From assembly GCA_016787925.1 (NCBI GenBank), contig JAEUSK010000272.1, forward strand, positions 12,668-76,667: DNA of 64,000 nt. The letters are read 5' to 3'. Positions 22,775-59,924 of the stretch are shown here, one piece after another (position 1 is the stretch's first letter; every line of letters starts with the position of its first letter). The notes under the pieces are model-generated. The model worked only from the letters and a program-made list of their open reading frames with translations, did no database searches and was not told the DNA's origin. A program made the position numbers and the translations under genes. Source of the DNA: a bacterium. Lineage in GTDB: Bacteria; CLD3; SB21.

Positions 22775-25700
22775 ATGAATTTAAGAGATAGATTTACCAT
22801 TATTGCTGTTGTGCTGGTTACTTGCACTGCTTTTTGTAAAGCTCAAGCCGTATATCCGCAAATTCAGTCCAAGCAAGATTATGTCAAATCCGTCTCTGAA
22901 AAAGAGGGCGAATTAGTTTACACATTCAATTTTGTTACGCCGGATATCGACCGGGTGGAAGTGAATGGTGAAACGCACCAACGTCTTACAGCCCCGCTTT
23001 TTGAGTACATGCAGGAGGAAGGGGCTCCGCAATTACCCAAAATAAGCTACCTCATTGAATTACCTGAAGGGTCACCGCAGGCCTTCGTAACGCATACTGA
23101 GCGCGTGTTTCTGCCGGTACAGTCTATTATGTTCAGCGGCGAGAACTTACCCACGGACGGTTCAGTGCCCGGATATCGCAAGCAAATCGCTAAAACATTC
23201 AACGCTGCCGGAGGTTGGTATCCAAGAAGCCTGGTTGAGTTAAGTTATCTCGGAAAAATGCGGGAAATTCCGTTATACCGATTAACCGTCTATCCATACC
23301 GATACCATGCAGCAAAACATCAGGTTGAGTTCAACAAAAACATAACCGTTAGGATTACCTACTCAACATCCAAAAAAGTGCAGGTTTATGAGAGCAATAC
23401 TTCTGAGATCAATGAAATACTTGATTCCGAACTGATCAACGTAAAGCAGGCCAAAAAATCACGGTATTTAAAAAATAAAACTATTTCAAAAAATTCCTCT
23501 GAGGCAACTTTTGCAAATGCTCCACAAGCCCATAAACAATCGATAAAAATCCTTGTTAACAGGAATGGTATTTACAAAGTTACGTATGATTACTTAAAAG
23601 AAAAAACAGGATTGGATTTTTCCGGAATCGATCCAAGAAACTTTCGTTTGTTTAATCTCGGGCTGGAAGTGCCGATATATTATCGCAGTCAGGAAAAAGA
23701 CAAATTTAGTTCCGGGGATTACTTTGAATTCTACGGTGAAAAATACCTAGCAAAGTTTAACAAGAATCTGCGCGATATTCCGCAAAGTATCGGACATTAT
23801 CTGGACCCGTGGAGCGACGATAACGTTTATTTCCTCAGCTGGGGACAAAAGCCCGGCATTCGGCTCATAGAGGAAAACGGAGGCGTAATTCTCCCACGGA
23901 AATCCGATTCACTTAGTTCGAATCAATTTACCGTTACGAAACATTTCGAAGAAGATAATATTCGTCTTGATATCAAAAACATAAACCTGATTCAACCGGC
24001 TGTAGTCGAGGATATTTGGGCATTCGACGGAGGAATTGCAAACCTGATTTCCAGTCAATCCCAAAAGGATTATGAATTTACTATCGAAAAATTGTCTTCT
24101 TCATCACTGAATCAGGTACTTCGCATTAATTTACAGGGCATCAGCACCAACAACCACACTGTTGATATTAAAATCAACGGTATTGGGATTACAACAAGTT
24201 TAGTCTGGACCGGCCCGAGCAAATTTCAGGCGGACATCCCGATAGCCAACATTTCATCAAATCCGCTTAAAGAGGGTGTTAATAAACTCACTATCAGTAC
24301 GCCGGTCACCTCAAACCCGGCCTTGTTGGACAAGTTTGCATTAAATTGGTTTGAAATCACTTACAAGAGAAAATATCAAGCAGAAAAAGACTACATTGAG
24401 TTTCGCGTTGGTGACGAAAGTTTTACCACTCTAAAAGAATTTAGGATCGAGAAATTTACTGACCCGGACATCAGCCTTTATAAGAAAGGCGTAAGCCGGA
24501 TGGTCAATTGGGATTTGAAAACCAACAGCGGCTCCCAAAAGGACACATCCTATTTTCTGGTTTTTCAGGATGAAGTGAGTATAAGCGGAATTGAATATAT
24601 CGCAGTGAGTGAATCCGCAAAACTCTTACCGAAGGATGCAATTCTTGACAAACCATCTGTCTTGGCCTCCGGATATCATAACGCGCGTTATCTGATTATT
24701 GCGCCGAAACTGCTGAAAGATGCGGCATTGCGGTTGGAAGATTATCGCAGATCGAAAGGTTTATCGGTAGAATCCGTTGATATAGAGGATATTTATGATG
24801 AATTCAATTTTGGCATAAAAAGTCCGTATGCAATACGGGATTTTCTCCGTTTTACTTATGTCAGCCCTAATTGGCATGGCAGCCAGGGTTCTCCACTCTA
24901 CATCATGTTAATCGGCGATGCATCCGCCGCTCCAAAAGCCATTAGTAATAATAACGATTTCATCCCTGTCCAGTTTATCCAAACTAAGACCTATGGTCCG
25001 GCCGCAAGTGATTACTGGTACAGTCTGGCGGACGATTTGGATATTTTGCCCGATTTTTTTGTCGGCCGTCTCCCGGTCTCCACCACCACACAACTCGACG
25101 CGGTCATAGACAAGATCATTACTTACGAACAATCAAATTTATCCGGTTCCTGGAAAAACAAAGTGCTTTATATAGGCGGGCAAAGCGATAACCGCGGTGT
25201 GGTTCAAAACATCAGTAGTATACCAGTTGATGTCTTTCGTTTTCAAGCTACCAGCATTATCAACTCGCGAATGCCGCAAAGTTTCTCACCGGATAGGGTT
25301 TATGTTTTTCCCATCCGAGATCAATTCTACGGAAACTTTGCTCAGGTCGTAAAAGGATTTGAAGAGGGCAATCTACTTACTGCTTATATTGGGCATGGCG
25401 GAGGCGGTATCTGGGGCGACCTGGATTCTGTTTCAGGAAAACCACTTTTGAATCTTACCCAAGTAAATGAGCTAAAAACTAATCCAGGACGCTACCCCCT
25501 TGTTCTCAGTATGACCTGCTTTGTTGGTGCGTTTGACAACCCGAATTCACTCGGTGAATTGCTGCTCACCAAACCTTATGGCGGTGCGATTGGCGTCATA
25601 GCATCCAGTGGAACCGGCTGGATCATCGGTGATTTTCAGCTTCTCGATCAATCTATAAATGCCTTTTTGAAGCCGGGCAATTCAGTCGGTGAAGCGGTGA

Positions 25701-27961
25701 CGCAGGGGAAAATAAACTATCTATTGCAGCAAGGCATTACTGATTATGAAGTCAGCGGAGCCGGCAATACGTTGACCACCGGCGCCGTGCCCCAAAGCAT
25801 GGTTTTTCAATTTAATTATTTGGGCGATCCGGCATTGAGATTAAAAACTCCGGTGAAAAGAACTTTTTCTCTATCCAATTACAGTCCATCTAAAACATCG
25901 GTCATATCGGTTTCAGGCGCGGCGGGATTTTCAAGCGGAACAGGAACCGCGCAAATTTATCAAATGCGTCAGGTTGTCGATTCAGTTGCCAATGGCGCAA
26001 ACAAACCTTCATTCGTTGATGTGGATACCGTCGATTTCCTGATCTCAGGTGGAAGTTACTTATTTGATGTTAACTTGGGCAATATCCCGTCCTCAGTTTT
26101 ACAAGACGGCATTACGGGAATCAGAATATACGCCGAATCGTACGATGGCCGATATGCGTTCAACGGACAGGATAATTTTACTATTAATGGCGCTTATATT
26201 TCACAAATTCAACTGCTGCCACCGATCCCCACAAGTTCCGACACCGTAAGATTTTCTGCAGTAGCAAGCGATCCGGATACAGTGAGACTCGTGACGGTCA
26301 CATATGATCGCACGGGCTCCGTCACGGAAAACGTAACCGATACACTTTTCTTGTCTCAAGATAATACTTATATCAGCCGTGGCAGCGGACCATTTATCGA
26401 AAATGATCTGATTACGTATCGGATAAAAGTCAAAGACAGTTTGGGCGATTCGACGATTTCAGATTTACAGGAAGTTCGAATTCTCGCCGGACTCGATCTC
26501 AAAATGGAGCAAGTGAACAGTCCAGGCGATCAAACCACGTCTATTTTTTTGGGTGGCACAAATCAGACAAATATTAATGCAGTAGTTCAAAATGCAGGAT
26601 ACAGACCCGCTTCAAATGTAAAAATACGCTTTTATGACGGCGATCCTCGTGTTGCCGGGATTTTTCTTGGCGAAGCTGATCTAACGATTGGCGGTTCTGT
26701 TCCAAACGCCGGAAAGATCGCAGTGGACACGGTCGCGATAGCCTCAACGCTGGGTAATGGTTCACATAATGTATTTGTTTGGATAGATCCTGATTCACTC
26801 ACTGCAGACATTAATCGATTCAATAATCTCGGATTTCGGGCGCTGACGTTGAGTACATTTAACGTTACACCAACCGCAGGAACGACATACGACGGAATAC
26901 AGAATGATACCGTTTCTGTCGACAATAGTTTTTTTATAAATGCGCCTGCCAATGCCGTGAGTCAAAATTCAACGTTGTCCATAAATAGAAAAACCAATAT
27001 CCTGATCAATGACCAACCCGATCTCAGTTTTGCATATCCGAAAGGCTATGCAACTCCTCAGGCTTATGATGTGACGTTATCTCATCCGCTTGTGAATTCA
27101 AAGTCAATTATGGTTCAATTTGATTATGACACAACGCTCTACCCTGCCGCCATGTTTTATCACGATTCTCTGAATATCTATGTGTGGAATTCGGGCAACC
27201 GAAAATGGAATATCGTAAATTCAGAAAAATTGATTCAAAACGGAACTATATCCGTCGAGGTTTCTGAGCAAGTTGATATCGGCATTTTTACGCTCATGAT
27301 AAATCGCGACCGTTTATCGCCTGTTATCGAGCCAACCGTCGAAGGTCAGTATTTTTCTCAAGGCTCGATCGCGCCGAAAAATCCGAAGATTTCCGCAATT
27401 ATCTATGACCGAAACGGAGTTAGTCTCAACCGTAAACATTATAACATTGAATTAAACGGACAGCGGCTTGATTCAACAAAAATAATTCTCCCTGATTCAT
27501 TGGCTAATTCAAACGTAGTTACTCTTACGCTTATCAATGATCAAAACTTTAACGCCGGCGCCAACAGCATAACTTTTCAGGTTTCCGACGTGAACGGGAA
27601 TGTGAGCGCACCGGACACGCTTCGCTTCAAAGTCGTCAGCGGTTTTGATATTAAGGTTTTAGGAAATTTTCCGAATCCATTCACCAATGTGACTACGTTC
27701 GCGTTTCGAATCGAAGCATCGGAACAATTGGATAATCTCGAGATCGGCATATACACGGTATCAGGAAGACGTATCAAGAAAATTACGCCCGAGGACATCA
27801 CAAGTCAGATACTAAACTCCGTGGGCTACCACGAAGTTCAGTGGGACGCCACGGACGATAACGGGCGTGACATTGCCAACGGAATTTATTTTTACCGGAT
27901 CAGGGGAAAGCTGAATGGAAAAATTGTAGAAAAGAAAGGTAAACTGGCTTATTTTAGATAA
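22775..27961 (+). CDS. porU: PorU-like C25 (gingipain-family) cysteine peptidase, 1728 aa, with T9SS C-terminal sorting domain
   Basis: Signal peptide. The central C25 domain has MLIGDASAAPK..DYWYS..FFVGRLPV..IITYE, catalytic His in YIGHGGGGIWGD and Cys in LSMTCFVGAF. The C-terminal approx. 80 aa (GNFPNPFTNVTTFAFRI..IYTVSGRRIKKI..YHEVQWDATDDNGRDIANGIYFYRI) is a type-A T9SS CTD. A PorV-like gene follows immediately. Confidence 0.65.
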   Translation: MNLRDRFTIIAVVLVTCTAFCKAQAVYPQIQSKQDYVKSVSEKEGELVYTFNFVTPDIDRVEVNGETHQRLTAPLFEYMQEEGAPQLPKISYLIELPEGSPQAFVTHTERVFLPVQSIMFSGENLPTDGSVPGYRKQIAKTFNAAGGWYPRSLVELSYLGKMREIPLYRLTVYPYRYHAAKHQVEFNKNITVRITYSTSKKVQVYESNTSEINEILDSELINVKQAKKSRYLKNKTISKNSSEATFANAPQAHKQSIKILVNRNGIYKVTYDYLKEKTGLDFSGIDPRNFRLFNLGLEVPIYYRSQEKDKFSSGDYFEFYGEKYLAKFNKNLRDIPQSIGHYLDPWSDDNVYFLSWGQKPGIRLIEENGGVILPRKSDSLSSNQFTVTKHFEEDNIRLDIKNINLIQPAVVEDIWAFDGGIANLISSQSQKDYEFTIEKLSSSSLNQVLRINLQGISTNNHTVDIKINGIGITTSLVWTGPSKFQADIPIANISSNPLKEGVNKLTISTPVTSNPALLDKFALNWFEITYKRKYQAEKDYIEFRVGDESFTTLKEFRIEKFTDPDISLYKKGVSRMVNWDLKTNSGSQKDTSYFLVFQDEVSISGIEYIAVSESAKLLPKDAILDKPSVLASGYHNARYLIIAPKLLKDAALRLEDYRRSKGLSVESVDIEDIYDEFNFGIKSPYAIRDFLRFTYVSPNWHGSQGSPLYIMLIGDASAAPKAISNNNDFIPVQFIQTKTYGPAASDYWYSLADDLDILPDFFVGRLPVSTTTQLDAVIDKIITYEQSNLSGSWKNKVLYIGGQSDNRGVVQNISSIPVDVFRFQATSIINSRMPQSFSPDRVYVFPIRDQFYGNFAQVVKGFEEGNLLTAYIGHGGGGIWGDLDSVSGKPLLNLTQVNELKTNPGRYPLVLSMTCFVGAFDNPNSLGELLLTKPYGGAIGVIASSGTGWIIGDFQLLDQSINAFLKPGNSVGEAVTQGKINYLLQQGITDYEVSGAGNTLTTGAVPQSMVFQFNYLGDPALRLKTPVKRTFSLSNYSPSKTSVISVSGAAGFSSGTGTAQIYQMRQVVDSVANGANKPSFVDVDTVDFLISGGSYLFDVNLGNIPSSVLQDGITGIRIYAESYDGRYAFNGQDNFTINGAYISQIQLLPPIPTSSDTVRFSAVASDPDTVRLVTVTYDRTGSVTENVTDTLFLSQDNTYISRGSGPFIENDLITYRIKVKDSLGDSTISDLQEVRILAGLDLKMEQVNSPGDQTTSIFLGGTNQTNINAVVQNAGYRPASNVKIRFYDGDPRVAGIFLGEADLTIGGSVPNAGKIAVDTVAIASTLGNGSHNVFVWIDPDSLTADINRFNNLGFRALTLSTFNVTPTAGTTYDGIQNDTVSVDNSFFINAPANAVSQNSTLSINRKTNILINDQPDLSFAYPKGYATPQAYDVTLSHPLVNSKSIMVQFDYDTTLYPAAMFYHDSLNIYVWNSGNRKWNIVNSEKLIQNGTISVEVSEQVDIGIFTLMINRDRLSPVIEPTVEGQYFSQGSIAPKNPKISAIIYDRNGVSLNRKHYNIELNGQRLDSTKIILPDSLANSNVVTLTLINDQNFNAGANSITFQVSDVNGNVSAPDTLRFKVVSGFDIKVLGNFPNPFTNVTTFAFRIEASEQLDNLEIGIYTVSGRRIKKITPEDITSQILNSVGYHEVQWDATDDNGRDIANGIYFYRIRGKLNGKIVEKKGKLAYFR

Positions 27962-37406: not shown

Positions 37407-39914
37407 TTAACCCTGTACTTCTTTACGGCGTTTAATGACCACAGAAATGATACTTATGATCATGATCCCAGTCACACTATAAAAAGAAATGGCAGTAACC
37501 CAAATCCCCAATCTGAATTCGGCAGGTTCAAATCTGAATTCGATGACATGCTCTCCCGGCGGAACCTGAACCGAGCGTAATACATAATTAGATTTGAAAA
37601 TTTCAGTTTCTTGTCCATCGACAAACGCTTTCCAACCGTGCGGATAATATACTTCACTCAAAACTAATTGCGAAGGCTTGTCGACGTAGGCCTTAACAGT
37701 GATACGATCAGTTGTAAACTCTGTGATTTCTGCAGAACTCGAATCAAAAGGCTCTACCGCAAGGTGCGGTTTTTTTTCAAGAATTACGGTTTCTGCGGGA
37801 TTAAACGATTCGGAATTCAATAAACCAAATATAGCCGGCTTGTCTGCTTCTACGACTATCTGTTTCACAAAAAACGCTCGTGGAAGCCTGTTCTTATTTT
37901 CATATATAAGCGTTTTATTCGCTTCATCCAATTTACTCAGGAAAAACCCTTTGCCTTGCGGGAGCTGGCCGTTCGCTATCAAGTATTTCACATTAAGCAT
38001 ATTCACCACGTTCATATTGACCGGGAATTGCGGGTCGGCGCCTTTATAAAGCGCAAAATCAATGATATCCTGGTAAATCCTCATCTTCGCCGGACTATAG
38101 CCGCCGACGCTCTGCAGACCGTAATAAGTCCATACCGGCGAGCCTGACTGAGCGTGTTCTAGTAGCGAAAATATCCTGAAATTGGTGGTGTCAGATCTCA
38201 AAAAGCGGATAGTCTCGGTCTCCTGAAATTCATAAGTCATCCCGGCGCGGGCCTGAGGGCGCAATATTTTCTTATTTAAGCTAAGAGTATCAAATACCAG
38301 GACGATCAGCAAGACGGACATTGCAATCGAATAAGATATTTTTTCACGCAGATAGAAATATATCATGGATAGAATGATCTCGAGCATGATGGCAAATTTT
38401 ACAAAACCGCCACTCAACGCATCGAACCGCAACTGCTTCAATTGAGCTATCTGGGGGGCGCTGTAGCGCTTCACATCGTCCTCCGCCAGGAGTGAGAACG
38501 CATTGGAAAAACCGCTTTTAAATATGGTTGCAATGATTAAGAGCACACCGATACCTGCCATGAAGTACAAAACAGCCTTCTCAAACGTCTTACGTTTTTT
38601 TTGCTCCTCAGCTGTAGGATTAAAAATATAATCAAGTCCATAACATGCAAGCAGCGAGACCGTAAAAGCAAATATTGACAAAATCATGGAAGGGACACGA
38701 AACTTACTAAAAAACGGCAAGACGCTCAGCATCAATTGGAAAAGTGGTTCAAAAAACCTGCCAAACGAGATGAGCAATGCGAAAACGGACGTTGCGAACA
38801 GAAATTTGGTCATCATGTTGCGCCGATAGATAACTCCAACTATCGCGGCAATCATCGGCAAAAGGCCAAAATAAAATGCGGAAGAGGTAAATGTCATCCA
38901 ACCCCAGTAATAGGGACTTTCAAGTCCAAAAAAAGTCGGAATAAAGAAAGTAATAGACTCCAGAGGATGAAAAGACCACATCGTGATATAATCAAACGTC
39001 ATTCCGCCTCCTGCCGCCATTGCCGTTGATTCGCTTAAAGCCGGCGGGACAGCGCGCATCGTAACATCGGAATAAACATATAATGAAAAATAATTAACTG
39101 CTCCAAACGCAAGCCCAACCAGCATTGCGGCAGCTAACCCAAACCCGTTCTTTATAAGGCCCGCTTTGTCCGTTCTATACTTGTCAATTATTAGGAACAC
39201 AAAATAAATTCCGAGCATCAGGAAAGCATAATAAATGATCTGAGTGTGTCCCGGATCAAGAAAAAAAGTTCCCATGATAAAACCCATTATCGACCAATTT
39301 AATATGTTTCGATCTTTGAAGAATCGAAAAACGCTCCACATTACGAGCGGAATATACGCGATTGTCTTAACTTTTCCGCCATGACCTGCTGCTACAGAAG
39401 CGACGAAAAAATTGCAGAACATATACGCAATCGCCGCCACCAGCGCGATCAAAGGACTGAATCCAAGTTGCCGGGCAAGCAGAAACATGAATACACCGGC
39501 AAAAAAGAAAATGGCTACTTCCCATGAATTATCACGATTAAAAAAAGCAATATTCACTGCCCAATTAACATAAGTCATAGGATTGACATAGGCCTGATAT
39601 TTATAAATTGGTATATGCGCCGGATCGCTGTACATACCGCTGGCAAAATTAGGCATCCCGGAAAACGTATACGGAAACCATAGAGGCATCGAACCTTCTT
39701 TTTCAATAAGACTTTGCGCAGCTCTAGAATTACTAATGCTTGCGGATATATCACCACCGGTTGTAAAGACTTTGTTCTGCAATACATAATCGCTAAACAA
39801 AAAAAGAACCAAAGCGTACAAAAACAATACCGCCAGCGCATCCTTCTGCCAACTATTCAGAACCGGCGTCGTTTGTCCCTTATCCGTTTTTAGTTTGAGA
39901 TTCGGTTTTGCCAT
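37407..39914 (-). CDS. YfhO-family polytopic membrane protein (GT-C-type glycosyltransferase-like)
   Basis: More than 12 TM helices with a C-terminal soluble domain. Size and topology match YfhO/DUF2723-type GT-C transferases. The probable start MAKPNLK is at 39914; the ORF-track start at 40016 is an upstream in-frame Met. 4 nt gap to the acylase. Confidence 0.5.
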   Translation of the reverse strand: MAKPNLKLKTDKGQTTPVLNSWQKDALAVLFLYALVLFLFSDYVLQNKVFTTGGDISASISNSRAAQSLIEKEGSMPLWFPYTFSGMPNFASGMYSDPAHIPIYKYQAYVNPMTYVNWAVNIAFFNRDNSWEVAIFFFAGVFMFLLARQLGFSPLIALVAAIAYMFCNFFVASVAAGHGGKVKTIAYIPLVMWSVFRFFKDRNILNWSIMGFIMGTFFLDPGHTQIIYYAFLMLGIYFVFLIIDKYRTDKAGLIKNGFGLAAAMLVGLAFGAVNYFSLYVYSDVTMRAVPPALSESTAMAAGGGMTFDYITMWSFHPLESITFFIPTFFGLESPYYWGWMTFTSSAFYFGLLPMIAAIVGVIYRRNMMTKFLFATSVFALLISFGRFFEPLFQLMLSVLPFFSKFRVPSMILSIFAFTVSLLACYGLDYIFNPTAEEQKKRKTFEKAVLYFMAGIGVLLIIATIFKSGFSNAFSLLAEDDVKRYSAPQIAQLKQLRFDALSGGFVKFAIMLEIILSMIYFYLREKISYSIAMSVLLIVLVFDTLSLNKKILRPQARAGMTYEFQETETIRFLRSDTTNFRIFSLLEHAQSGSPVWTYYGLQSVGGYSPAKMRIYQDIIDFALYKGADPQFPVNMNVVNMLNVKYLIANGQLPQGKGFFLSKLDEANKTLIYENKNRLPRAFFVKQIVVEADKPAIFGLLNSESFNPAETVILEKKPHLAVEPFDSSSAEITEFTTDRITVKAYVDKPSQLVLSEVYYPHGWKAFVDGQETEIFKSNYVLRSVQVPPGEHVIEFRFEPAEFRLGIWVTAISFYSVTGIMIISIISVVIKRRKEVQG

Positions 39915-40065
39915 GATGATTCCAATAAATGTGGGAGAGTTATTCGGGAAAAAAGTAATTAAAAATTCAATGAATATCAAAATGTATTTTCGTGTCAAAC
40001 TTGAACAAATCTTCATAAAGGGCTATATTCAGACTAGATAACAAAAGACAATCCCCATTAGCTAT

Positions 40066-50702: not shown

Positions 50703-50798
50703 TACGTTCTCCGTAAATTAACCGAAATGTGAAACACCATCAGAATGTTTCACGAAATTATGTGCAATAATAGACAAAGCGATTAATAAATACAACTC

Positions 50799-52331
50799 TT
50801 AATTTCCACTAATTCCAAGCGCTGGAAAGATCGAATGCGTTAAGCCGGAGTTAATTAAGTCAATGATCCATGCCGGATAAGCGCCTGCGAGAACGATCGT
50901 TAGCATCAGTACTGAAAGCGCAAATACTTCGCGCTTATCGGTATCAACCAAATGATGAAAATGTTCGTTTTTGAGCAGTGCCGCCGTATGATCTCCGAAA
51001 AATATGCGCTGCACGGCTCTAAGAACATAGATCGCCGTGAATACCACCCCGGTTAGACAAATTAACGCGATATATTTCATAGCAGGACTTGGAACCCCTG
51101 CGACACCTGCGGAGAATGCGCCTGTCAATACCAGTAATTCCGATACAAATCCCGACAACCCGGGTAACCCAAGTCCGGTCATTCCTGCAAAACCAAACGC
51201 AACGGCTGTAAAAGGCATGACCTTGGCCAGCCCTCCCATTTCCGTGATTTGCCGTGAGTGCAGCTTACCGTATACAACACCGACCAGCGCGAAAAGTAGA
51301 GCCGTCATGATGCCGTGAGCAAACATCTGATACACAGCCCCGTTTATTCCGGCAGGGGTCAGAGTACAAATACCCAGTGTCACAATACCAAGATGCGATA
51401 CGGATGAATATGCAATAATATACTTGAGGTCGGTTTGCCGCATGGCTGATAAGGAACCGTACACAATATTTATTACAGTCAGGCATGCAAAAAATAACGA
51501 CCATTCGTGCGCACCATAAGGCATAAATTGTAACCCGATTCTGATAATCCCATATCCGCCGAGTTTCATTAAAACACCCGCATGCAACATGCTTACCGCA
51601 GAAGGCGCCGAAGCATGTCCATCCGGAGACCATGTGTGAACAGGCCACAAACCGCCGATTGTTCCAAACCCGACAAAAATCATGGGATAGAAAATGTATT
51701 GCCAGCTCTCGTCGACAGTAAAATTCTTCATTAAAAAATCGTAGTCAAAACTCCATACGCCGGTTGCCGCATGGGCCTGTACGTAAACGCCAAAAATAGG
51801 AATAATTAGCAACGCGCTTCCCAGCATGAGATAAAGAGTCAGCTTCATAGCAGAGTATTCTTTTTTGCCTGTTCCCCAAATTCCGATGAGTAAATACATG
51901 GGCAATACGGCAAGTTCATAAAACACGAGAAACAAGAACATGTCAAATGAAACAAAAACGCCGAAAACGCCGGAAACCAACAAAAGAAGTAATGCAAAAA
52001 ATTCTTTTTGCCGCTCCTTAATTTCCCAGGAAATCAAACACCCTGTAAATATCGTGATGGAGGTCAGCAAAAGCATCGCAATACTCACGCCGTCAGCAGC
52101 AAGGTGAAAATGCATGCCTAATCGTTCCACCCACGGAATATTCAGTTCAAAGTTTCTGGGATTGGAAGGATCATATAAAATATATGCGACCACAGATAAA
52201 ACCACTGTGAGCAGGGAGGCAAACGACGACAACATGCGCGGGCCCGTAGCGTCTTCGGCAGGCATCAGCATTATTATGATAGAGGCTATAGCCGGCAAAG
52301 CGATAATGGCTGGTAATAAATAACTTTCCAC
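50799..52331 (-). CDS. nuoM: NADH-quinone oxidoreductase antiporter-like subunit, NuoM-type
   Basis: HTWSPDGHASAP..LMKLGGYGIIR matches the NuoM (chain 4) motif rather than the NuoN or NuoL motif; 510 aa; 14 TM. Confidence 0.7.
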   Translation of the reverse strand: MESYLLPAIIALPAIASIIIMLMPAEDATGPRMLSSFASLLTVVLSVVAYILYDPSNPRNFELNIPWVERLGMHFHLAADGVSIAMLLLTSITIFTGCLISWEIKERQKEFFALLLLLVSGVFGVFVSFDMFLFLVFYELAVLPMYLLIGIWGTGKKEYSAMKLTLYLMLGSALLIIPIFGVYVQAHAATGVWSFDYDFLMKNFTVDESWQYIFYPMIFVGFGTIGGLWPVHTWSPDGHASAPSAVSMLHAGVLMKLGGYGIIRIGLQFMPYGAHEWSLFFACLTVINIVYGSLSAMRQTDLKYIIAYSSVSHLGIVTLGICTLTPAGINGAVYQMFAHGIMTALLFALVGVVYGKLHSRQITEMGGLAKVMPFTAVAFGFAGMTGLGLPGLSGFVSELLVLTGAFSAGVAGVPSPAMKYIALICLTGVVFTAIYVLRAVQRIFFGDHTAALLKNEHFHHLVDTDKREVFALSVLMLTIVLAGAYPAWIIDLINSGLTHSIFPALGISGN

Positions 52332-52352: not shown

Positions 52353-54410
52353 TTATTCTGAACTAAAACTTACATTGTAAACAGCAAAACCCTTTCGCGC
52401 GTCATTCGCGGCGTTACGGTTATATCCAAATTGAATAACGTTCTGACCGGGTTGAAACCACTTTGCATCCAGTTCCGCAACAACCGTTTCGCGCTGATTT
52501 GTCAGGCACTTTGAAATATAGGCAGAATGCGCGTTGTTAATGACTACAAAAGCTTCCCGATCGTCGTCAATGGCCTCACCATCCACGAATATCTTTACCT
52601 TCAATTTACCGCCAAGATCAGGCATGTTAATGGGAAATTGCTGTGAAGCCTGCGTTTCCGGAGATTTGCCAAGTTCGAATACAAATGATTTTGGCGGTTC
52701 GGGCGCGTCATGATCCCAACTGAAAACCTGAACCGTTCCGTCCGTACATGCATCAAAGTGATACGTTAGATTTTTCATAACGTAATCCCGCACGCGCGGG
52801 TCTGTCATGACATTATAGAAATAATAATCGGCAAAGACCCAGCCTCTTTTGAACCGTTGCGTCGTTTCCACAAAATTTTCATATGTCGTGCCGTTCGGCG
52901 CCGTTGTCTCTATTTTTTCATTGGATATATACCGCTTTACATACTCGCTGTAGTGCATTTGCCGAAACCATAAGGAACTGTCAATACCGAGGTAATGATT
53001 AGTTCCTGACGGCATCGTTGAAAAGATGATATCATCCTTTTGGATTTTCGCCTTTACATTTTGTGAAGCTTCCCGCCAATTCGAGAAAAACCAGTTGGAT
53101 ATTTCACCCCGCGCCACCATACCATGGCGTTGGGGTCGAATTAGTGCTCTTAAATCTTTTATCGGAGCAAATGAAATCAGAACAGCAACCGTTCCTAAAA
53201 TAACCGCGATATTGATTACAGCCCTTTGAGCCAACGAAGGCGGGAGTAAATACAAACCAATCACCCGCCAGATTCCATACACTGCAACCCCCGCTCCAAT
53301 CAAAAAAAACGGGTAAATGAATATCAAATATCGCGTCGTGGCCGGGTCATAAAATACAAAACTCATTAACATCAGCGGAACAATAAAAAGTGAAATCAAA
53401 AAAACAGCAGACTTTCTTTGGACAAAAAATGCAACGATTAAGCCGATAAAACCGAGCCACCAGTAATTTGGAAAATCAACCTTAAAGACCGACATATAAA
53501 TATTAAATACTTTGGCAGGATCCGCAGATGCCCACATTTGGAAAATAATGTCCCATCGCGGGATGAACCACAAAACACCTTCCTCATGCATGACCAGGCC
53601 GGCCACGGGCCGTATGATATCCGCCATAAACGGCGTATAGAATAAAAACATAAAAAGCAAAGTCCCATAAAGTATCCAACTGTATTTATTCGTAAAACGG
53701 CCATCCTTTTTTTGATATAAATTCCATAAGGCCATTGCGGAACCGTACGCCATGAACGTAAAAATAAAAAAGAAAGTGAGCTGGTGATTGAGCAATGACG
53801 CCAGTAAAGCAAACGGGAATAATAAAAGATATTTTTTTTGAATTCCGTTACGGTCAAACCAATTCGCCGAATTTCCGGATCTGCCGCCTTCAAGCGCAAG
53901 CCAAAAGACAATAATGAGAAGCAAATAAAATAATTCAAAACTTGCGTAGTTACGGCTGACTCTGGACCAGAACACTGAATAGACGGACACGGTTGCAAGC
54001 CCCGCAGCAATGGTCCCAATGAACCGGTTAAACAAGATCTTGCCGAGAAAATATGTTGCAGGGATAACCAGCGTGCCGAGAATAACGCTGACCATCCGCG
54101 CAGAATAGTCACTGATGCCGAATATCGAATAATTTAAGAAAACTAAAACCGTCAGAAAAATCCCGTTGTTGTCGTGATGACTCAGGATAGATTTACCCTG
54201 AAAAACGCCCGCCGCCTGATCGGGAATTATGAATTCATCAGTCCATAAACTTAGAAAATCCAATTGAAATTCTCGTAGTAAGAATCCTACGATCATTAGA
54301 ACGACGACAAAATACACGGCATACTTTTCAAACCATTCCGATAACGGAAAAGTGTTAATCGGTATCTCCGTCGTCTTCAGAGTAACTTTTTTTGTAACCG
54401 TTTTTTTCAT
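52353..54410 (-). CDS. GT-C-fold membrane glycosyltransferase (GT39/GT83, ArnT/PMT-like) with C-terminal periplasmic domain
   Basis: Approx. 12 TM helices, an acidic DE motif in the first periplasmic loop (LWTDEFIIPD), and an approx. 230 aa soluble C-terminal domain. 685 aa. Confidence 0.6.
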   Translation of the reverse strand: MKKTVTKKVTLKTTEIPINTFPLSEWFEKYAVYFVVVLMIVGFLLREFQLDFLSLWTDEFIIPDQAAGVFQGKSILSHHDNNGIFLTVLVFLNYSIFGISDYSARMVSVILGTLVIPATYFLGKILFNRFIGTIAAGLATVSVYSVFWSRVSRNYASFELFYLLLIIVFWLALEGGRSGNSANWFDRNGIQKKYLLLFPFALLASLLNHQLTFFFIFTFMAYGSAMALWNLYQKKDGRFTNKYSWILYGTLLFMFLFYTPFMADIIRPVAGLVMHEEGVLWFIPRWDIIFQMWASADPAKVFNIYMSVFKVDFPNYWWLGFIGLIVAFFVQRKSAVFLISLFIVPLMLMSFVFYDPATTRYLIFIYPFFLIGAGVAVYGIWRVIGLYLLPPSLAQRAVINIAVILGTVAVLISFAPIKDLRALIRPQRHGMVARGEISNWFFSNWREASQNVKAKIQKDDIIFSTMPSGTNHYLGIDSSLWFRQMHYSEYVKRYISNEKIETTAPNGTTYENFVETTQRFKRGWVFADYYFYNVMTDPRVRDYVMKNLTYHFDACTDGTVQVFSWDHDAPEPPKSFVFELGKSPETQASQQFPINMPDLGGKLKVKIFVDGEAIDDDREAFVVINNAHSAYISKCLTNQRETVVAELDAKWFQPGQNVIQFGYNRNAANDARKGFAVYNVSFSSE

Positions 54411-54444
54411 TAATTATATTGTTTTCTGAACCAAAAAAACAAAC

Positions 54445-55212
54445 TCAAGGCAACCTCTCCATCTTGCGATAACGATCAGAAATAACATACTGCCAGATCA
54501 GCTCCAAATATCCTCGAATCGTCCGGAATATCTTATTTCCGGACATCCCCTGTTTATTGTCATAGCGCAGAATCAGGGGAATCTCAGCAGTTTTCCGCGT
54601 GAGGTTGCCCATCTTCAGGAGCAGGCTGCAAATAGAAGCAAAGCCCCTGCCTTCAATAAGCCTGTCGCCATAACGGTCAAAACTTGATTTGATCAGTCCG
54701 ACGCGGCACGCCCGGTAAAAAATAGAATAGTCTTTCACATTGGGCAACCCAACGAGAATACGCATGATCCATGAAACACCGTAGCTGAAAATCTGCCGTG
54801 TCCATGGACAGCCTATCATCCCGCCGTTCCCTTCAAATCGGGATGCAATCACTATATCATCACCCGACTCAATTCGCCGGATCATCTCCGGTATCAGGCG
54901 CGGATCCTGTGTGTTATCAGAATCCAACACAACACAAATATCTTTTTCCGGTTCTTTGCTGTCTTCAATAATAAACTTAAATCCTTTTTTGAAAACTTCC
55001 GTCACACCCTGATTCTGCGGGAACGTAATCAACTTGAGATCGAGTTCAGATATGAACGAACGAGCGACTTCGCTCGTGCGATCCTTGCTGCCGTCGTCCA
55101 CCACGACAACGCGGAAAGGATCTCTGCTTGACGCGGAGATTTCTTTAAGAATCGGGAGAACTTCCTGAAGCCCGTTTTCCTCATTATAGGACGGCAGCAA
55201 TATGTAAATCAT
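54445..55212 (-). CDS. GT2 polyprenyl-phosphate sugar transferase (ArnC / DPM-synthase-like)
   Basis: ILLPSYNEE..VVVVDDGSKD..DSD (DxD) GT-A motifs; 255 aa; no TM tail. Confidence 0.7.
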   Translation of the reverse strand: MIYILLPSYNEENGLQEVLPILKEISASSRDPFRVVVVDDGSKDRTSEVARSFISELDLKLITFPQNQGVTEVFKKGFKFIIEDSKEPEKDICVVLDSDNTQDPRLIPEMIRRIESGDDIVIASRFEGNGGMIGCPWTRQIFSYGVSWIMRILVGLPNVKDYSIFYRACRVGLIKSSFDRYGDRLIEGRGFASICSLLLKMGNLTRKTAEIPLILRYDNKQGMSGNKIFRTIRGYLELIWQYVISDRYRKMERLP

Positions 55213-56172
55213 TTACCACTCACACTTATTCAGGTTTTGCTTACGCAGCCATTCGTAATACTCACGAAGTCCCGTCTCCAGTTCTATCTCCGGCTGATAC
55301 CCAAGAATTTTTTTTGCAAGGTCCACTGACGCAACGCGGCGCGTAACGGAATCCCAATTCCGTCGTTCGTGATGAACGACTCTTGATTTCGAATCGGTAA
55401 TCCTGAGTATCATTTGAACAAGATCCTTAATTTTTGTTTCACGGCCTGACGCAATATTGATAACCTTCCCACTCGCAGTTTCCGTTTCCGCCGCAAGAAT
55501 TGTAGCTCGAACGGAGTCTTTCACAAAATTAAAATCACGCGTCTCTTCTCCCGTACCGGTAATAATAATATCCTCATTACGCATGGCTTTTGCCAGAAAA
55601 TTGGCGATTACATTGCGATATTTGCCGGGATACTCATTCGGCCCGAAAACGTTAAAATACCTAAGGGTTACTGTATTTAGCCCGTGATGGTGGTTAAAAA
55701 ATCGAACGTATCTTTCGCCGAGCAATTTGGTAATGGCATAAGGCGTATCCAGGCTATATTCCTGGCACTTTTCATCCAGTGGCTCATTGCGATCCCCATA
55801 GACGCACGACGACGAAGTGTATACAAATTTTTTGACTTTATTCTCAACCGAACGAAGTAGTATTTTTAAAGTGCCCATGCCGTTAACCTGCAGATCGCGT
55901 TGCGGAAAATCTACCGAGTTTTGATTGGCAAAATTAGCCGCAAGATGAAAAACGACATCAGTCGATTCGGAAATCGCTTGCCGTAAGTCTTCAGCCGACT
56001 CCACACTGCCCTGTATGAAGCGGACATTGGGCCGCATGACAATATTTTCAACATGCCCGGAAGAGAGATTATCAAGAACCGTGATACGGTTGCCGGAATC
56101 CTCGGAAAGCCGATTAACCATGCTGCTGCCGATGGCCCCGGCGCCACCCGTTACGAGAATGTTTTTTGTCAT
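55213..56172 (-). CDS. NAD-dependent sugar-nucleotide epimerase/dehydratase or decarboxylase (SDR, UXS/ArnA-C-like)
   Basis: VTGGAGAIGS Rossmann motif, catalytic YAITK (YxxxK), SSSCVYG. The stop abuts the GT2 start. Confidence 0.7.
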   Translation of the reverse strand: MTKNILVTGGAGAIGSSMVNRLSEDSGNRITVLDNLSSGHVENIVMRPNVRFIQGSVESAEDLRQAISESTDVVFHLAANFANQNSVDFPQRDLQVNGMGTLKILLRSVENKVKKFVYTSSSCVYGDRNEPLDEKCQEYSLDTPYAITKLLGERYVRFFNHHHGLNTVTLRYFNVFGPNEYPGKYRNVIANFLAKAMRNEDIIITGTGEETRDFNFVKDSVRATILAAETETASGKVINIASGRETKIKDLVQMILRITDSKSRVVHHERRNWDSVTRRVASVDLAKKILGYQPEIELETGLREYYEWLRKQNLNKCEW

Positions 56173-56212
56173 TTTGTGTTGGTTTTTTATCTATTTCAAT
56201 GGTTGTTCACAG

Positions 56213-57844
56213 CTATAATTTTATTTTTTCAAAAACATACATCGCAAATCGCCGGTCAGTAGATATAAACTGCTGCTGCATTTTAAAATTTGGATTATTT
56301 ACAATATCTTCCTGCTGAACATTGCTTGAAAGACGCCAACTGTAGTGCGAGTCCCATAAAACGATCCCTCCTACCGGCAACGCATCCAATTTTTCTTTGC
56401 GCATTTCATAGTACGCTCCCTCTTTTGACGGCGCCGTGTAAAAATTATAATTGTCATAAAAGAAAAACCATGAATGCGCAACCATCGTCTTCGGCGAATT
56501 GGCTTTCAAGTTAGCATTATAATATTCATAACAATTCCGTACGGCTTGCTGTTCCGGCGCAAGCTGCAGCGGTTTTTCTTTTGACAGTGTGTACCAGCAT
56601 GAGCCCAGTGCCACTGCAGTTAACATAATTAGTTTTGTTTCCTTGCCCTGTATCTTCAGAAATTGATTTAGTACAAAGAAAAAGAGTAACAGCAGAACTA
56701 ACAAAAACTTTGAATACTCACGTAATGGCAATCCTGTGGCCGGGTTGACGACTGAAAAGCTGCCAAATAGTTCCACTGAATAGTATACCAAAACTATGAC
56801 CGTAACAACAACAAGTGAAATGGTATTAAAAGTCCGGTCTTTGTCATTTCCGCTCACAAACCACTTATTGAATCCTTGCAGAGCCATGAGCGCCATGACG
56901 GGCGCAATCGCAACAAAATGTCGGAGAAATCCGGCATGCGCCACATTTCCCTTCCAGTACATATAGACGTGCGCTGCAAATATGACGACGACTGAAAAAT
57001 TGATAATAGTTACACTTTTATTCTTCACGTCATGCGCAAGCTGCAGCAGCATAAAAGCGAATACGATGGGCCCGGCAATAAAAATAAATGTCTGAAAATA
57101 GTGATCGAAGGGCCCGTTGGCGTACTGTCCGTGTGCAAAACTTTTTGAAGCGGTAAGTAAATACAAAATGTCGCCCGTTACAATCATACCGGCGATTTGA
57201 TAAAGCACTAAGCCGAATCCGAGCAGTAATATCGGAACGTATTTTTTTTCTTGGTACAAAAGCCATGCAAATATGGGAAGGATCAATATAAGCTCACTGC
57301 GAGCCAAAGGAACCATGGATAAGACTATAGCCGCCCCATTCCAGTTCTTTTTGTAAAACCAAAACAATCCCAACGCCAAGAAAAAAGCCGCTAATGGTTC
57401 CGTACAAAGACTAAAACTGGTAATAAAGAAAAACGGCTGGGCAATAGTAAAAACGATTGCTATCCATGCGTTTTGAATTTCTGCAGCAACGGCCGCTTTA
57501 TAAACAAAATAACATGTCCCAACTGTTAAAACAGCCGTGATAGCAGCGCAATACCAGTATCCCGCTTGTGCAGGAAGGACAAAAAACAAAATCGCAAGCG
57601 GTCTCCCCCAGAAATTCAGAATAAAATCGGGCTTAACCCATGCCGCCTGCGCCATGAAATAGCGGTTAATACTATCGTCGTCATAAGGCCTTGGAGAATT
57701 GACCAGCCAGTAAAATATAACAACGCCTACAATGGCAAGAAAAGCCCAGACTGATTTTTCCGAAAGTTCGAATGCATCCGAAAACGTTTTTGGATTTTTA
57801 ATCGGCGGGGTGGAAGAAGATTTTTTTTTTACTGCGTTTGCCAT
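56213..57844 (-). CDS. GT-C-fold membrane glycosyltransferase (ArnT/PMT-like), second copy
   Basis: Polytopic (approx. 11 TM) with the acidic loop motif RPYDDDSINRY after TM1 and a C-terminal soluble domain. Starts 9 nt after the nuoL stop. Confidence 0.55.
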   Translation of the reverse strand: MANAVKKKSSSTPPIKNPKTFSDAFELSEKSVWAFLAIVGVVIFYWLVNSPRPYDDDSINRYFMAQAAWVKPDFILNFWGRPLAILFFVLPAQAGYWYCAAITAVLTVGTCYFVYKAAVAAEIQNAWIAIVFTIAQPFFFITSFSLCTEPLAAFFLALGLFWFYKKNWNGAAIVLSMVPLARSELILILPIFAWLLYQEKKYVPILLLGFGLVLYQIAGMIVTGDILYLLTASKSFAHGQYANGPFDHYFQTFIFIAGPIVFAFMLLQLAHDVKNKSVTIINFSVVVIFAAHVYMYWKGNVAHAGFLRHFVAIAPVMALMALQGFNKWFVSGNDKDRTFNTISLVVVTVIVLVYYSVELFGSFSVVNPATGLPLREYSKFLLVLLLLFFFVLNQFLKIQGKETKLIMLTAVALGSCWYTLSKEKPLQLAPEQQAVRNCYEYYNANLKANSPKTMVAHSWFFFYDNYNFYTAPSKEGAYYEMRKEKLDALPVGGIVLWDSHYSWRLSSNVQQEDIVNNPNFKMQQQFISTDRRFAMYVFEKIKL

Positions 57845-57853
57845 TTCATACGA

Positions 57854-59836
57854 TTATTGAATCATCTGTGCAAGAATGCCGGGAACTTTCATGTACAGAA
57901 AACCTAAAACAAACAAAAGCCCGACAAAGACGACTAAAATGTAATTCTGTAACTTTCCGCTTTGAACGGGCTGTAAGACTAAACCGAAACGCGTCGTCAT
58001 AAAACCGACCAGATCAACCGAGCCATCCACAATGTGACGATCAAACCATGCGCATCCGGCAGCAATCCTGAATAGAATATTATTGAGTATCCATGACCAC
58101 ACTTCATCAATGTACCATTTATTTTCAAGATGCGTATAAAGTTTTCCCAATTTAGCGCGTAACGGATCATGCGCTTCGCTCGTCCATTCCGCAGGACGTT
58201 TGGCGTATAAAACAAATGCAGAAACGATGCCAAGGCCGGCAACCAGCACGGAAATTCCGGCTATGGATAAATGAAACACCGCCTCATGATTCCACTCCGG
58301 ATTCAAAAATGCCGCATAACTTGTTATGTTAAGTGTATGTGCGATATCATGATTTCCTATTAGCCCTGCGAATACCGACAGGGTCGCCAAAACGATCAGT
58401 GGAAATGTCATGCTGAACTCCGATTCATGCGGATGAGCCGATGCCGGAGTCTTGCCCCAAAATGCAACGAGACACAAACGAAACATATAAAATGCGGTGA
58501 GAAATGCTCCCGCTAAAGCGACGCCGAACAAAATATACCCGTGCACCGTCCCTACTTCCATACAGAGCGCTAATATCTCATCTTTACTCCAGAAGCCCGC
58601 AAACGGCGGAATTCCTGACAGCGCGATCGTCCCTATAATAAACGTCCAAACCGTAATTTTCATTTTTGATTTAAGTCCGCCCATCTCCCAAATATTATTA
58701 GTATGCATCGCGTGAATAACGCTGCCGGCGCCAAGGAAGAGAAGAGCTTTGAAGAATGCATGGGTGAATAAGTGAAAAGTTCCTGCCGTCTGCCCCATCA
58801 AGGCAAGATCGCTTCCTGCGTGTCCGTTGCTGGTGTTAGATAACCCGATACTGCCGCCGATGCCTAAAGCGAGCATCATATACCCTAATTGGCTTAGCGT
58901 CGAGAATGCGAGTATACGTTTAATATCATGTTGAGCAACCGCTATGGTCGCCGAAAAGAGCGCCGTAAAGCCGCCGATATAAGCCACCCACAACATGGTG
59001 TCCGGCGTTTGCGCAAAAATCATAATAGCGCGTGCCACAAGAAAAATTCCGGCGACGACCATCGTCGCGGCGTGGATCAAGGCGGACACAGGCGTAGGTC
59101 CTTCCATGGCGTCCGGCAGCCAGATATGCAGCGGAAATTGGCCGCTCTTGCCCATGGCGCCGAAAAAAATCAGAAACGGAAAAATCCGCGCCAGAAATTC
59201 CGTCGTTTCCCCATACAGCGTTTGAATTTCTGCAAAGTTAAATGTTCCGAAATAACCCCAGCAGATCACGACCGCCATAAAAAAGCCAAGGTCGCCGGCG
59301 CGAGTAACTGAAAATGCTTTCTTTGCTGCGTCCGCCGCTGTTTTCTTGGTATAGTAATAACCAATCAGAAGATACGAGCATAATCCGACCAGTTCCCAGA
59401 ATATGAACATCTGTAACATGTTGTCGGACAAAACCAACCCAAGCATTGAAAACGTAAATAACGACAGATAGGAAAAAAACCGCGACTTACCGTCCTCATG
59501 CTTCATATAACCTAGTGAGTAGATATGAACAAGCATGGTTACCGTTGTTACGACGATCAGCATCATGACGGATAACGGATCAAGAAACACACCGACGCTG
59601 ACATTCAGGGCTTTGCCGAGAGGAATCCACTGAATATTCAACATCTGAGCGCTTCCTGCACCGGCGAGCATTTCCATTGTGACACGAATGGATAAGTAAA
59701 ACGAAGCCACGACCACTGCAACTGAAATGAAAGCCGTAAGATCTCTATATTTTTGCGTGAACAAGACCGTGAAAATAAACGAGAATAAAGGCAGCGCAGG
59801 TATGAGCCAGGCTAATTCATAATATGTTGGATTCAC
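57854..59836 (-). CDS. nuoL: NADH-quinone oxidoreductase subunit L
   Basis: GKSGQFPLHIWLPDAMEGPTPVSALIHAATMV; 660 aa with a long horizontal helix region. Confidence 0.9.
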   Translation of the reverse strand: MNPTYYELAWLIPALPLFSFIFTVLFTQKYRDLTAFISVAVVVASFYLSIRVTMEMLAGAGSAQMLNIQWIPLGKALNVSVGVFLDPLSVMMLIVVTTVTMLVHIYSLGYMKHEDGKSRFFSYLSLFTFSMLGLVLSDNMLQMFIFWELVGLCSYLLIGYYYTKKTAADAAKKAFSVTRAGDLGFFMAVVICWGYFGTFNFAEIQTLYGETTEFLARIFPFLIFFGAMGKSGQFPLHIWLPDAMEGPTPVSALIHAATMVVAGIFLVARAIMIFAQTPDTMLWVAYIGGFTALFSATIAVAQHDIKRILAFSTLSQLGYMMLALGIGGSIGLSNTSNGHAGSDLALMGQTAGTFHLFTHAFFKALLFLGAGSVIHAMHTNNIWEMGGLKSKMKITVWTFIIGTIALSGIPPFAGFWSKDEILALCMEVGTVHGYILFGVALAGAFLTAFYMFRLCLVAFWGKTPASAHPHESEFSMTFPLIVLATLSVFAGLIGNHDIAHTLNITSYAAFLNPEWNHEAVFHLSIAGISVLVAGLGIVSAFVLYAKRPAEWTSEAHDPLRAKLGKLYTHLENKWYIDEVWSWILNNILFRIAAGCAWFDRHIVDGSVDLVGFMTTRFGLVLQPVQSGKLQNYILVVFVGLLFVLGFLYMKVPGILAQMIQ

Positions 59837-59924
59837 AGAAACTCCTCGTCAACTAAGATCAAATATCTCGTGTCGGTGAAACACTATTATAACACGGCCA
59901 CACCGAACAAGACAATTATATAGG

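Follow-up and report, generated by a model that had tools for sequence, protein, structure and literature searches.

Glycosylation genes in a lineage-wide slot between nuoL and nuoM of a bacterial complex I operon

In the Arn pathway of Enterobacteria and Burkholderia, ArnA, ArnB, ArnC, ArnD, and ArnT put 4-amino-4-deoxy-L-arabinose (L-Ara4N) on lipid A. In mycobacteria (PpgS, Rv3631, with Rv3779) and Francisella (FlmF2 with FlmK), polyprenyl-phosphate-linked N-acetylgalactosamine or galactosamine donors work with glycosyltransferases of the C fold (GT-C): a family 2 glycosyltransferase (GT2) makes the polyprenyl-phosphate amino sugar, and the GT-C decorates an envelope glycan or lipid A. O-antigen glucosylation by GtrA/GtrB/GtrC and the CsbB/GtcA/YfhO systems of Firmicutes combine a GT2 undecaprenyl-phosphate-sugar synthase, a flippase, and a polytopic transferase, and such Gtr-type cassettes, which can shift from one genomic context to another, add sugars to surface glycans that are already assembled. 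Clusters of nuo/nqo genes for respiratory complex I are known to hold foreign open reading frames (ORFs), such as the unidentified reading frames (URFs) of Paracoccus denitrificans and Rhodobacter capsulatus and the pcd and nhaD genes in the nqo cluster of Rhodothermus marinus, but we know of no glycosylation module inserted in one. The locus described here, in a 64,000-nt stretch (the window) of contig JAEUSK010000272.1, bacterial assembly GCA_016787925.1, has four glycosylation genes between nuoL and nuoM.

Counted from nuoL, these genes encode a GT-C-fold transferase (GTC543), a short-chain dehydrogenase/reductase (SDR) of the extended, UDP-sugar epimerase kind, a GT2 near dolichol-phosphate mannose synthase (DPMS), GtrB, and ArnC, and a second GT-C-fold transferase (GTC685). 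All four identities, proposed in an earlier note made from the DNA alone, hold, which makes the route suggested there, from nucleotide sugar through polyprenyl-phosphate sugar to a periplasmic acceptor, a reasonable one. As enzymes they are of well-known kinds, those of a polyprenyl-phosphate-sugar pathway with GT-C transferases. What is new is the arrangement, a stable, lineage-wide glycosylation slot between nuoL and nuoM in one of the most conserved operons of bacteria; an uncharacterised GT-C family, that of GTC543, which has no fewer than 2,000 clusters (50% identity) but no Pfam or NCBIfam model; and a host operon that lacks nuoN when the nearest outgroups have it. A literature search returned nothing relevant on interrupted nuo operons, glycosyltransferases between nuoL and nuoM, or missing nuoN. 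The earlier note had called a nuo operon interrupted by an envelope-glycosylation module an undescribed arrangement.

Compared with the Arn pathway, the cassette is short of an aminotransferase, a formyltransferase, a deformylase, and the ArnE/F flippase; its SDR resembles WbmF/Mth375 rather than being an ArnA decarboxylase, its GT2 lacks the two C-terminal transmembrane (TM) helices of ArnC, and it contains two GT-Cs in a nuo operon, whereas Arn has one in a PmrA-regulated operon. The pairing of a short DPMS-like GT2 with a PMT_2/ArnT-like GT-C is shared with the PpgS/FlmF2 systems, although the GT2 scores far under the PpgS cut-off and no NaxD-like deacetylase is present in the cassette. Similar to Gtr-type cassettes, the SDR-GT2-GTC685 trio moves between contexts, being found both in the window and at another locus (L023), but no small GtrA/GtcA-type flippase gene accompanies it, an SDR is added, and the transferases are classical GT-Cs with DE or DDD motifs in loop 1. 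As in the nuo/nqo clusters mentioned above, non-subunit genes are fixed and, here plausibly, co-transcribed inside a complex I operon; what is inserted in those clusters, however, is a set of small URFs or a gene for a pterin dehydratase or an antiporter, and none of these goes with a missing nuoN.

The four enzymes and their transcription

GTC543 displays the polytopic N-terminal module of the GT-C fold, with about 11-13 TM helices and a long extracytoplasmic loop 1, and carries right after TM1 the run Y54-D55-D56-D57, which recurs in 90% or more of 34 homologues and supplies the acidic catalytic motif (DDD) of that loop; judging from the Lys-rich N-terminus, the motif would lie on the periplasmic side. 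No Pfam or NCBIfam model matches GTC543 even at E ≤10, PF13231, PF02366, and the ArnT models included. Its family comprises at least 2,044 clusters at 50% identity (E ≤1e-3), or 515 at E ≤1e-30. None of the wider family matches PMT_2, one member matches GT87, and many carry C-terminal tetratricopeptide (TPR) repeats, which GTC543 itself lacks. A distant relative, at locus L028, sits among GT2, GT4, and GT9 genes. The possibility that GTC543 is a divergent NuoN or antiporter-like subunit was rejected on the grounds that it has no similarity to NuoL or NuoM, adopts the GT-C fold, and occurs without nuo genes; because its fold is not antiporter-like, it could not replace NuoN.

GTC685 combines the GT-C fold and an Asp-Glu motif in loop 1 with a C-terminal part made of a periplasmic α/β domain and a β-sandwich resembling a carbohydrate-binding module (CBM). 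Against PF13231 it scores 16.5 bits, below the gathering cut-off of 26.1, but its orthologue at locus L021 (53% identical) reaches 28.7 bits, and the domain is present in many homologues. Neither GTC543 nor GTC685 matches an ArnT NCBIfam model, so that their likeness to ArnT does not go beyond the fold; the ArnT structure 5f15 is among the structural matches.

The SDR matches PF01370 (Epimerase, E 1.8e-54), has no predicted TM segment, and finds its closest solved relative in Mth375 (6pmh, E 1.7e-81 across the full length). Their alignment shows NFANQ, GGAGAIG, SSC, YAITK, YFNVFGP, PGKYRNV, and ETRDF, and the SDR has the Rossmann GxxGxxG, the YxxxK, the Ser/Cys pair, and the substrate-loop motifs of WbmF/Mth375-type enzymes, in agreement with those listed for Mth375 (PMC12820599). 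Mth375 is itself a putative WbmF-type nucleotide-sugar epimerase (PMC12820599). A UDP-glucuronic acid decarboxylase of the ArnA-C/UDP-xylose synthase (UXS) type was discarded as an identity for the SDR, which scores 62 bits against the ArnA equivalog (cut-off 777) and 83 bits against the UXS equivalog (cut-off 294) and matches human UXS structures at E ~1e-29, far behind Mth375.

The GT2 matches PF00535 (E 4.2e-23, 82.5 bits) and has a DSD motif at residues 97-99, as expected of the GT-A fold and DxD motif of DPMS/GtrB/ArnC-type enzymes. Its best solved relative is the dolichol-phosphate mannose synthase of P. furiosus (5mlz, E 1.6e-19, residues 3-241), followed by GtrB (5ekp) and ArnC (9bhc). 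NCBIfam matches are weak (PgfS, PpgS, Dol-P-hexose transferase, and ArnC), amounting to 38 bits against the PpgS equivalog NF058614 (cut-off 370; E 1.4e-9) and 36 bits against that of ArnC (cut-off 529). No TM-like segment is predicted in its 255 aa, a feature in which it resembles the TM-less DPM1/PpgS-type enzymes. It is a candidate polyprenyl-phosphate sugar synthase. The analogy that the earlier note drew with Arn and Flm decoration of lipid A stays hypothetical, and the ArnA, ArnC, and PpgS equivalogs are all matched far below cut-off.

From nuoL to nuoM, the intergenic gaps measure 9, 40, 0, 34, and 21 nt, the start ATG of the GT2 gene directly adjoining the SDR stop codon; a listing of minus-strand ORFs reproduced the coordinates, strand, and gaps reported earlier (Table 1). 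None of the five gaps contains a terminator-like hairpin, the first intergenic one coming after nuoM (50753-50729), nor a match to the Bacteroidetes-type promoter TAnnTTTG, and a sigma-70 promoter scan gave consensus-level matches only, mostly within coding sequence; neither of these scans decides the matter. The GC content of the cassette, overall and at third codon positions (GC3), is indistinguishable from that of the host genes, and no mobile-element genes or repeats flank it. Spacing is tight or overlapping in all relatives, with overlapping genes in L021. Given the short or overlapping gaps, the lack of an intergenic terminator, and the GC and GC3 match with the neighbours, co-transcription with nuo, as the earlier note supposed, is plausible, though not proven. 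The best sigma-70-like match of the region (TTGTCT-18-TATAAT with an extended -10 TG, 10/12) lies in the unusually long, 88-nt nuoK-nuoL gap (59837-59924); this site is probably not conserved, since the corresponding spacer in L021 has only 6 nt.

Table 1. The insert, its boundary genes, and the downstream repeat (positions in the window)
Feature	Position	Strand	Basis
nuoL, 660 aa, upstream boundary of the insert	57854-59836	-	NF005141 NuoL equivalog
GTC543, 543-aa GT-C-fold glycosyltransferase, constant "anchor" gene of the insert	56213-57844	-	unmodelled family
319-aa extended-SDR nucleotide-sugar epimerase, WbmF/Mth375 type	55213-56172	-	PF01370, 6pmh match
255-aa GT2, candidate DPMS-like polyprenyl-phosphate sugar synthase without TM helices	54445-55212	-	PF00535, 5mlz
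GTC685, 685-aa GT-C-fold transferase, PMT_2 (GT39/GT83-like) clan	52353-54410	-	fold and motif
nuoM, 510 aa, downstream boundary and last gene of the operon	50799-52331	-	TIGR01972
Inverted repeat GTGAAACA-N9-TGTTTCAC in the 96-nt nuoM-parA gap	50729-50753	-	terminator-like scan

The slot in related loci and the absence of nuoN

A GTC543 family search and a scan of a genome collection yielded about 18 distinct related loci, most of them from metagenome-assembled genomes labelled uncultured Bacteroidota. All share the backbone HisK-unk257-...-GTC543-...-ParA-ParB and fall into four types. In type A (the window, L010, L006, and L005), nuoA-L is followed by GTC543-SDR-GT2-GTC685 and nuoM; in type D (L021), the insert reads GTC543-GT2-methyltransferase-GTC683; in type B (L003, L011, L017, L018, L025, and L026), GTC543-methyltransferase separates nuoA-L from nuoM; and in type C (L001, L009, L012, L014, L015, and L019/L020), unk257-(PMT_2)-GTC543-methyltransferase is found without nuo genes. 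The gene order of the window recurs at 69-97% protein identity in the independent assemblies L010, L006, and L005, and it is therefore neither a product of chance nor an assembly artefact. In all 12 related nuo-bearing loci, GTC543 stands directly after nuoL, with gaps of -10 to 16 nt, and in none of them are nuoL and nuoM adjacent. Present across the related loci, the interruption is thus lineage-wide and old, which settles the question, raised with the first description, of whether it is strain-specific.

GTC543 alone is constant: all examined members of the lineage have it, with identities as low as 46%. The slot has three or more alternative contents, one of which is the SDR-GT2-GTC685 trio; the trio is conserved in at least four species-level genomes (69-97% identity) and restricted to one sub-clade, plus L021 in modified form. 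It is also found in L023, where the glycan cluster that houses an SDR (45% identical), a GT2, and GTC682 (49% identical to GTC685) also includes a GT4, a methyltransferase, an ArnC-like GT2, and a GT9 resembling heptosyltransferases, so that the trio behaves as a portable module. A further GTC685 relative, in L024, stands alone. The contexts of L023 and L028 point to envelope-glycan decoration, probably of the lipopolysaccharide (LPS) type. Two candidate homologues in these comparisons were rejected: the 570-aa PMT_2 gene upstream of GTC543 in L001 shows only a local match of 127 residues to GTC685 (E 1e-4), and the 257-aa gene beside the distant GTC543 homologue of L028 gives only a BLASTP E of 1.5 against unk257.

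Six relatives, those of type C, have no nuo gene within 10 kb and keep GTC543 and the methyltransferase at the identical site, the GTC543 copies being intact with all invariant residues. It looks as if complex I had been cleanly lost and the genes embedded in it had stayed. As HisK-unk257 and ParAB flank both versions, a single insertion of GTC543-methyltransferase followed by deletion of nuo genes on both sides is the simplest account; the alternative route requires two separate insertions of parts of one operon, exactly flanking GTC543-methyltransferase. In the type C loci, the two genes are set tight against unk257, with gaps of 6 nt or overlaps. The slot methyltransferase itself (L003, 11639-12421), of which every type B and C locus has an orthologue, matches UbiG best among NCBIfam models (E 2e-11, below cut-off), which probably reflects generic class-I methyltransferase similarity and is not taken as a link to quinones; a quinone-related O-methyltransferase beside complex I genes is the less probable alternative.

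Upstream of nuoL, the window contains nuoD, H, I, J, and K, and nuoD and nuoH have no nuoE, F, or G between them, which makes the operon one of the 11-subunit type; nuoA-C are out of view because the window ends about 200 nt past the nuoD start, and they were seen in relatives instead. Nine nuo ORFs can be compared with curated thresholds, and every one is full-length and above them, with the proviso that for nuoD this holds for equivalog models only, the match to TIGR01962 being broken into two stretches. The NuoL score is 656 bits for the equivalog NF005141 (cut-off 556), and since the alignment spans profile positions 3-611 of 615, its C-terminal lateral-helix region is retained. NuoM reaches 462 bits against TIGR01972 (NDH_I_M, cut-off 264) and only 138 bits against NDH_I_N.

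A feature overlooked in the earlier note is that the operon has no nuoN. By tblastn, neither nuoN nor any third antiporter-like gene was found in the window or, to 10 kb, in 12 related loci (for example, L003, L006, L010, L011, L017, L018, L021, L025, and L026). Instead of the canonical nuoABCDHIJKLMN with contiguous L, M, and N, the locus thus has nuoL and nuoM 5.5 kb apart and no nuoN. The gene may be encoded elsewhere in the genome, a likely location given that NuoL keeps its full C-terminal region. The nearest outgroups, L029 and L030, have the canonical order, in which nuoL adjoins nuoM and nuoM overlaps nuoN, and NuoM identity falls from ≥80% inside the lineage to ≤57% outside it; hence, the insertion and the missing nuoN are derived traits of this clade. 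Among the related loci, identity is 78-97% for NuoM and 81-97% for NuoD, compared with 46-92% for GTC543, and the nuo genes, being full-length, above threshold, and better conserved than the glycosylation genes, appear to be under purifying selection. In L017 (12080-13608), nuoM is split into two overlapping ORFs, by either a frameshift (an incipient pseudogene) or an assembly error. In addition, a 762-aa NuoM-like protein (P0222) on a 3.8-kb metagenome contig scores 698 bits, high for its 48% identity, and could be either a fused protein or a chimera with a frameshift, derived from this lineage.

Explanations for a glycosylation slot in a nuo operon

The four genes probably constitute an ordinary polyprenyl-phosphate-sugar pathway for envelope glycosylation that shares a transcript with complex I and does not serve it. 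In such a pathway, the WbmF/Mth375-type SDR would turn a UDP-sugar into its epimer, and the TM-less, DPMS-like GT2 would load the epimer sugar onto undecaprenyl phosphate at the cytoplasmic face. Once the lipid-linked sugar has been flipped across the membrane, a step for which the cassette encodes no flippase, GTC685 would pass it on to a glycan facing the periplasm, which is most likely LPS, lipooligosaccharide, or a different surface polysaccharide; an LPS-like acceptor is suggested by the CBM-like periplasmic domain of GTC685 and the LPS-type neighbours of its orthologue. GTC543 would make a second transfer from a lipid-linked sugar, to the same or another acceptor. As to history, an ancestor with a canonical nuoA-N operon may have had GTC543 and the methyltransferase fixed between nuoL and nuoM early in a Bacteroidota clade, after which the position behind GTC543 would have become a slot of glycosylation-gene turnover, and a portable SDR-GT2-GT-C trio would have displaced the methyltransferase in the sub-clade of the window. 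The arrangement might then have been kept since the inserted genes and nuoM rely on one promoter, not on one another. The suggestion of the earlier note that glycosylation is co-regulated with respiratory-chain biogenesis, with the cassette as a functional unit, is not supported, in view of the variation in slot contents, the GTC543 loci without nuo, and the occurrence of the trio in L023.

Several points weigh against this explanation. Which sugar, which acceptor, and indeed that the donor is a polyprenyl phosphate are read only from family resemblance. Moreover, GTC543 has stayed between nuoL and nuoM across about 50% divergence of its own protein; so long a period of inert hitch-hiking would be unusual, and selection for co-expression could be at work. 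All genes that ever entered the slot are related to glycosylation, which fits a functional island, and this leaves the location within nuo unexplained. Independence from complex I, read from the absence of nuo genes at the type C locus only, is not proven, and a neighbour-joining tree, unrooted or midpoint-rooted, puts the nuo-less loci in a basal position, so that the direction of change, loss or gain of nuo, is not settled.

The main rival is genuine coupling, in which GTC543, and in the sub-clade of the window the whole cassette, would glycosylate a periplasmic loop of the membrane arm or would assemble or stabilise a complex I whose operon lacks nuoN, co-transcription securing stoichiometric co-production. 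It is kept alive by the invariant position of GTC543 right after nuoL and by the coincidence of two lineage-specific changes, the insertion and the absence of nuoN, both confined to a lineage whose nearest outgroups have contiguous nuoL-M-N; the TPR repeats of many wider-family members, a feature of protein-directed GT-C enzymes, lend it further support. GTC543 has no TPR domain, however, and its fold offers no substitute for NuoN; distant family members reside in LPS-type glycan clusters, and the six type C relatives keep an intact GTC543 without nuo at the locus. Coupling is accordingly judged quite unlikely. A still bolder version is a long shot: the complex I of this clade would be served by GTC543 as a dedicated partner that glycosylates or scaffolds the membrane arm of a complex with a nuoN-less operon, the downstream genes tuning the attached sugar, and lipid-linked sugar transfer would be joined physically to the respiratory chain. 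True coupling would tie envelope glycosylation to the assembly of a respiratory complex, which would be without precedent. If the coupling is transcriptional only, the locus offers a clean natural case in which an insertion froze in an operon and its genes turn over as modules, and a caution against inferring function from operon membership.

Two other explanations concern the standing of the inserted and the host genes. That the insert is transient DNA, horizontally acquired by a strain or species as a recent passenger, is unlikely: GTC543 occurs throughout the lineage, nuoL and nuoM are never contiguous there, the trio is itself conserved among several species-level genomes, and base composition is host-like with no mobile elements at the flanks. 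The passenger idea is largely refuted for GTC543 and only partly apt for the trio, which is limited to one sub-clade and the modified L021, recurs as a portable block in L023, and belongs to a slot whose content differs among sub-clades. It is very improbable that the nuo genes are a decaying or non-functional remnant, the operon acting mainly as a promoter for glycosylation genes, even though nuoN is absent from the window and from all 12 loci, some relatives have lost every nuo gene here, and nuoM of L017 is split, because conservation is higher in the Nuo proteins than in the glycosylation proteins. Furthermore, the scorable nuo ORFs are full-length and pass their thresholds, NuoL keeps its whole C-terminal region, and nuoN may lie elsewhere.

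The downstream repeat and other genes of the window

Downstream of nuoM lie parA and parB and, on the opposite strand, hutH and an M20 peptidase gene. The inverted repeat GTGAAACA-N9-TGTTTCAC has a single copy in the window and a single copy per locus in 11 distinct relatives (13 locus records); every copy sits immediately upstream of parA, and its arms are conserved whereas the loop varies (for example, L003 14045-14069, L010 12450-12474, L018 11678-11702, L025 14010-14035, and L014 12335). Its arms are the half-sites of the canonical parS palindrome, TGTTTCAC followed by GTGAAACA, in swapped order, and no canonical parS occurs in the window. The repeat is likely to mark the end of the transcription unit, as a terminator, or to be a putative binding site for a ParB-type protein or a regulator, or both.

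About 12 kb from the cassette, the window encodes an 869-aa membrane protein (37407-40016, minus strand) with a C-terminal match to the YfhO family (PF09586, E 6.7e-10), a further GT-C-type glycosyltransferase family, making it a third candidate lipid-linked-sugar transferase. A 1,728-aa gingipain-like C25 peptidase with a propeptide and a C-terminal Ig-like (FlgD_ig) domain is encoded at 22775-27961 on the plus strand, with the gene for a UPF0164-like protein after it, and is consistent with a secreted protease of Bacteroidota (FCB group).

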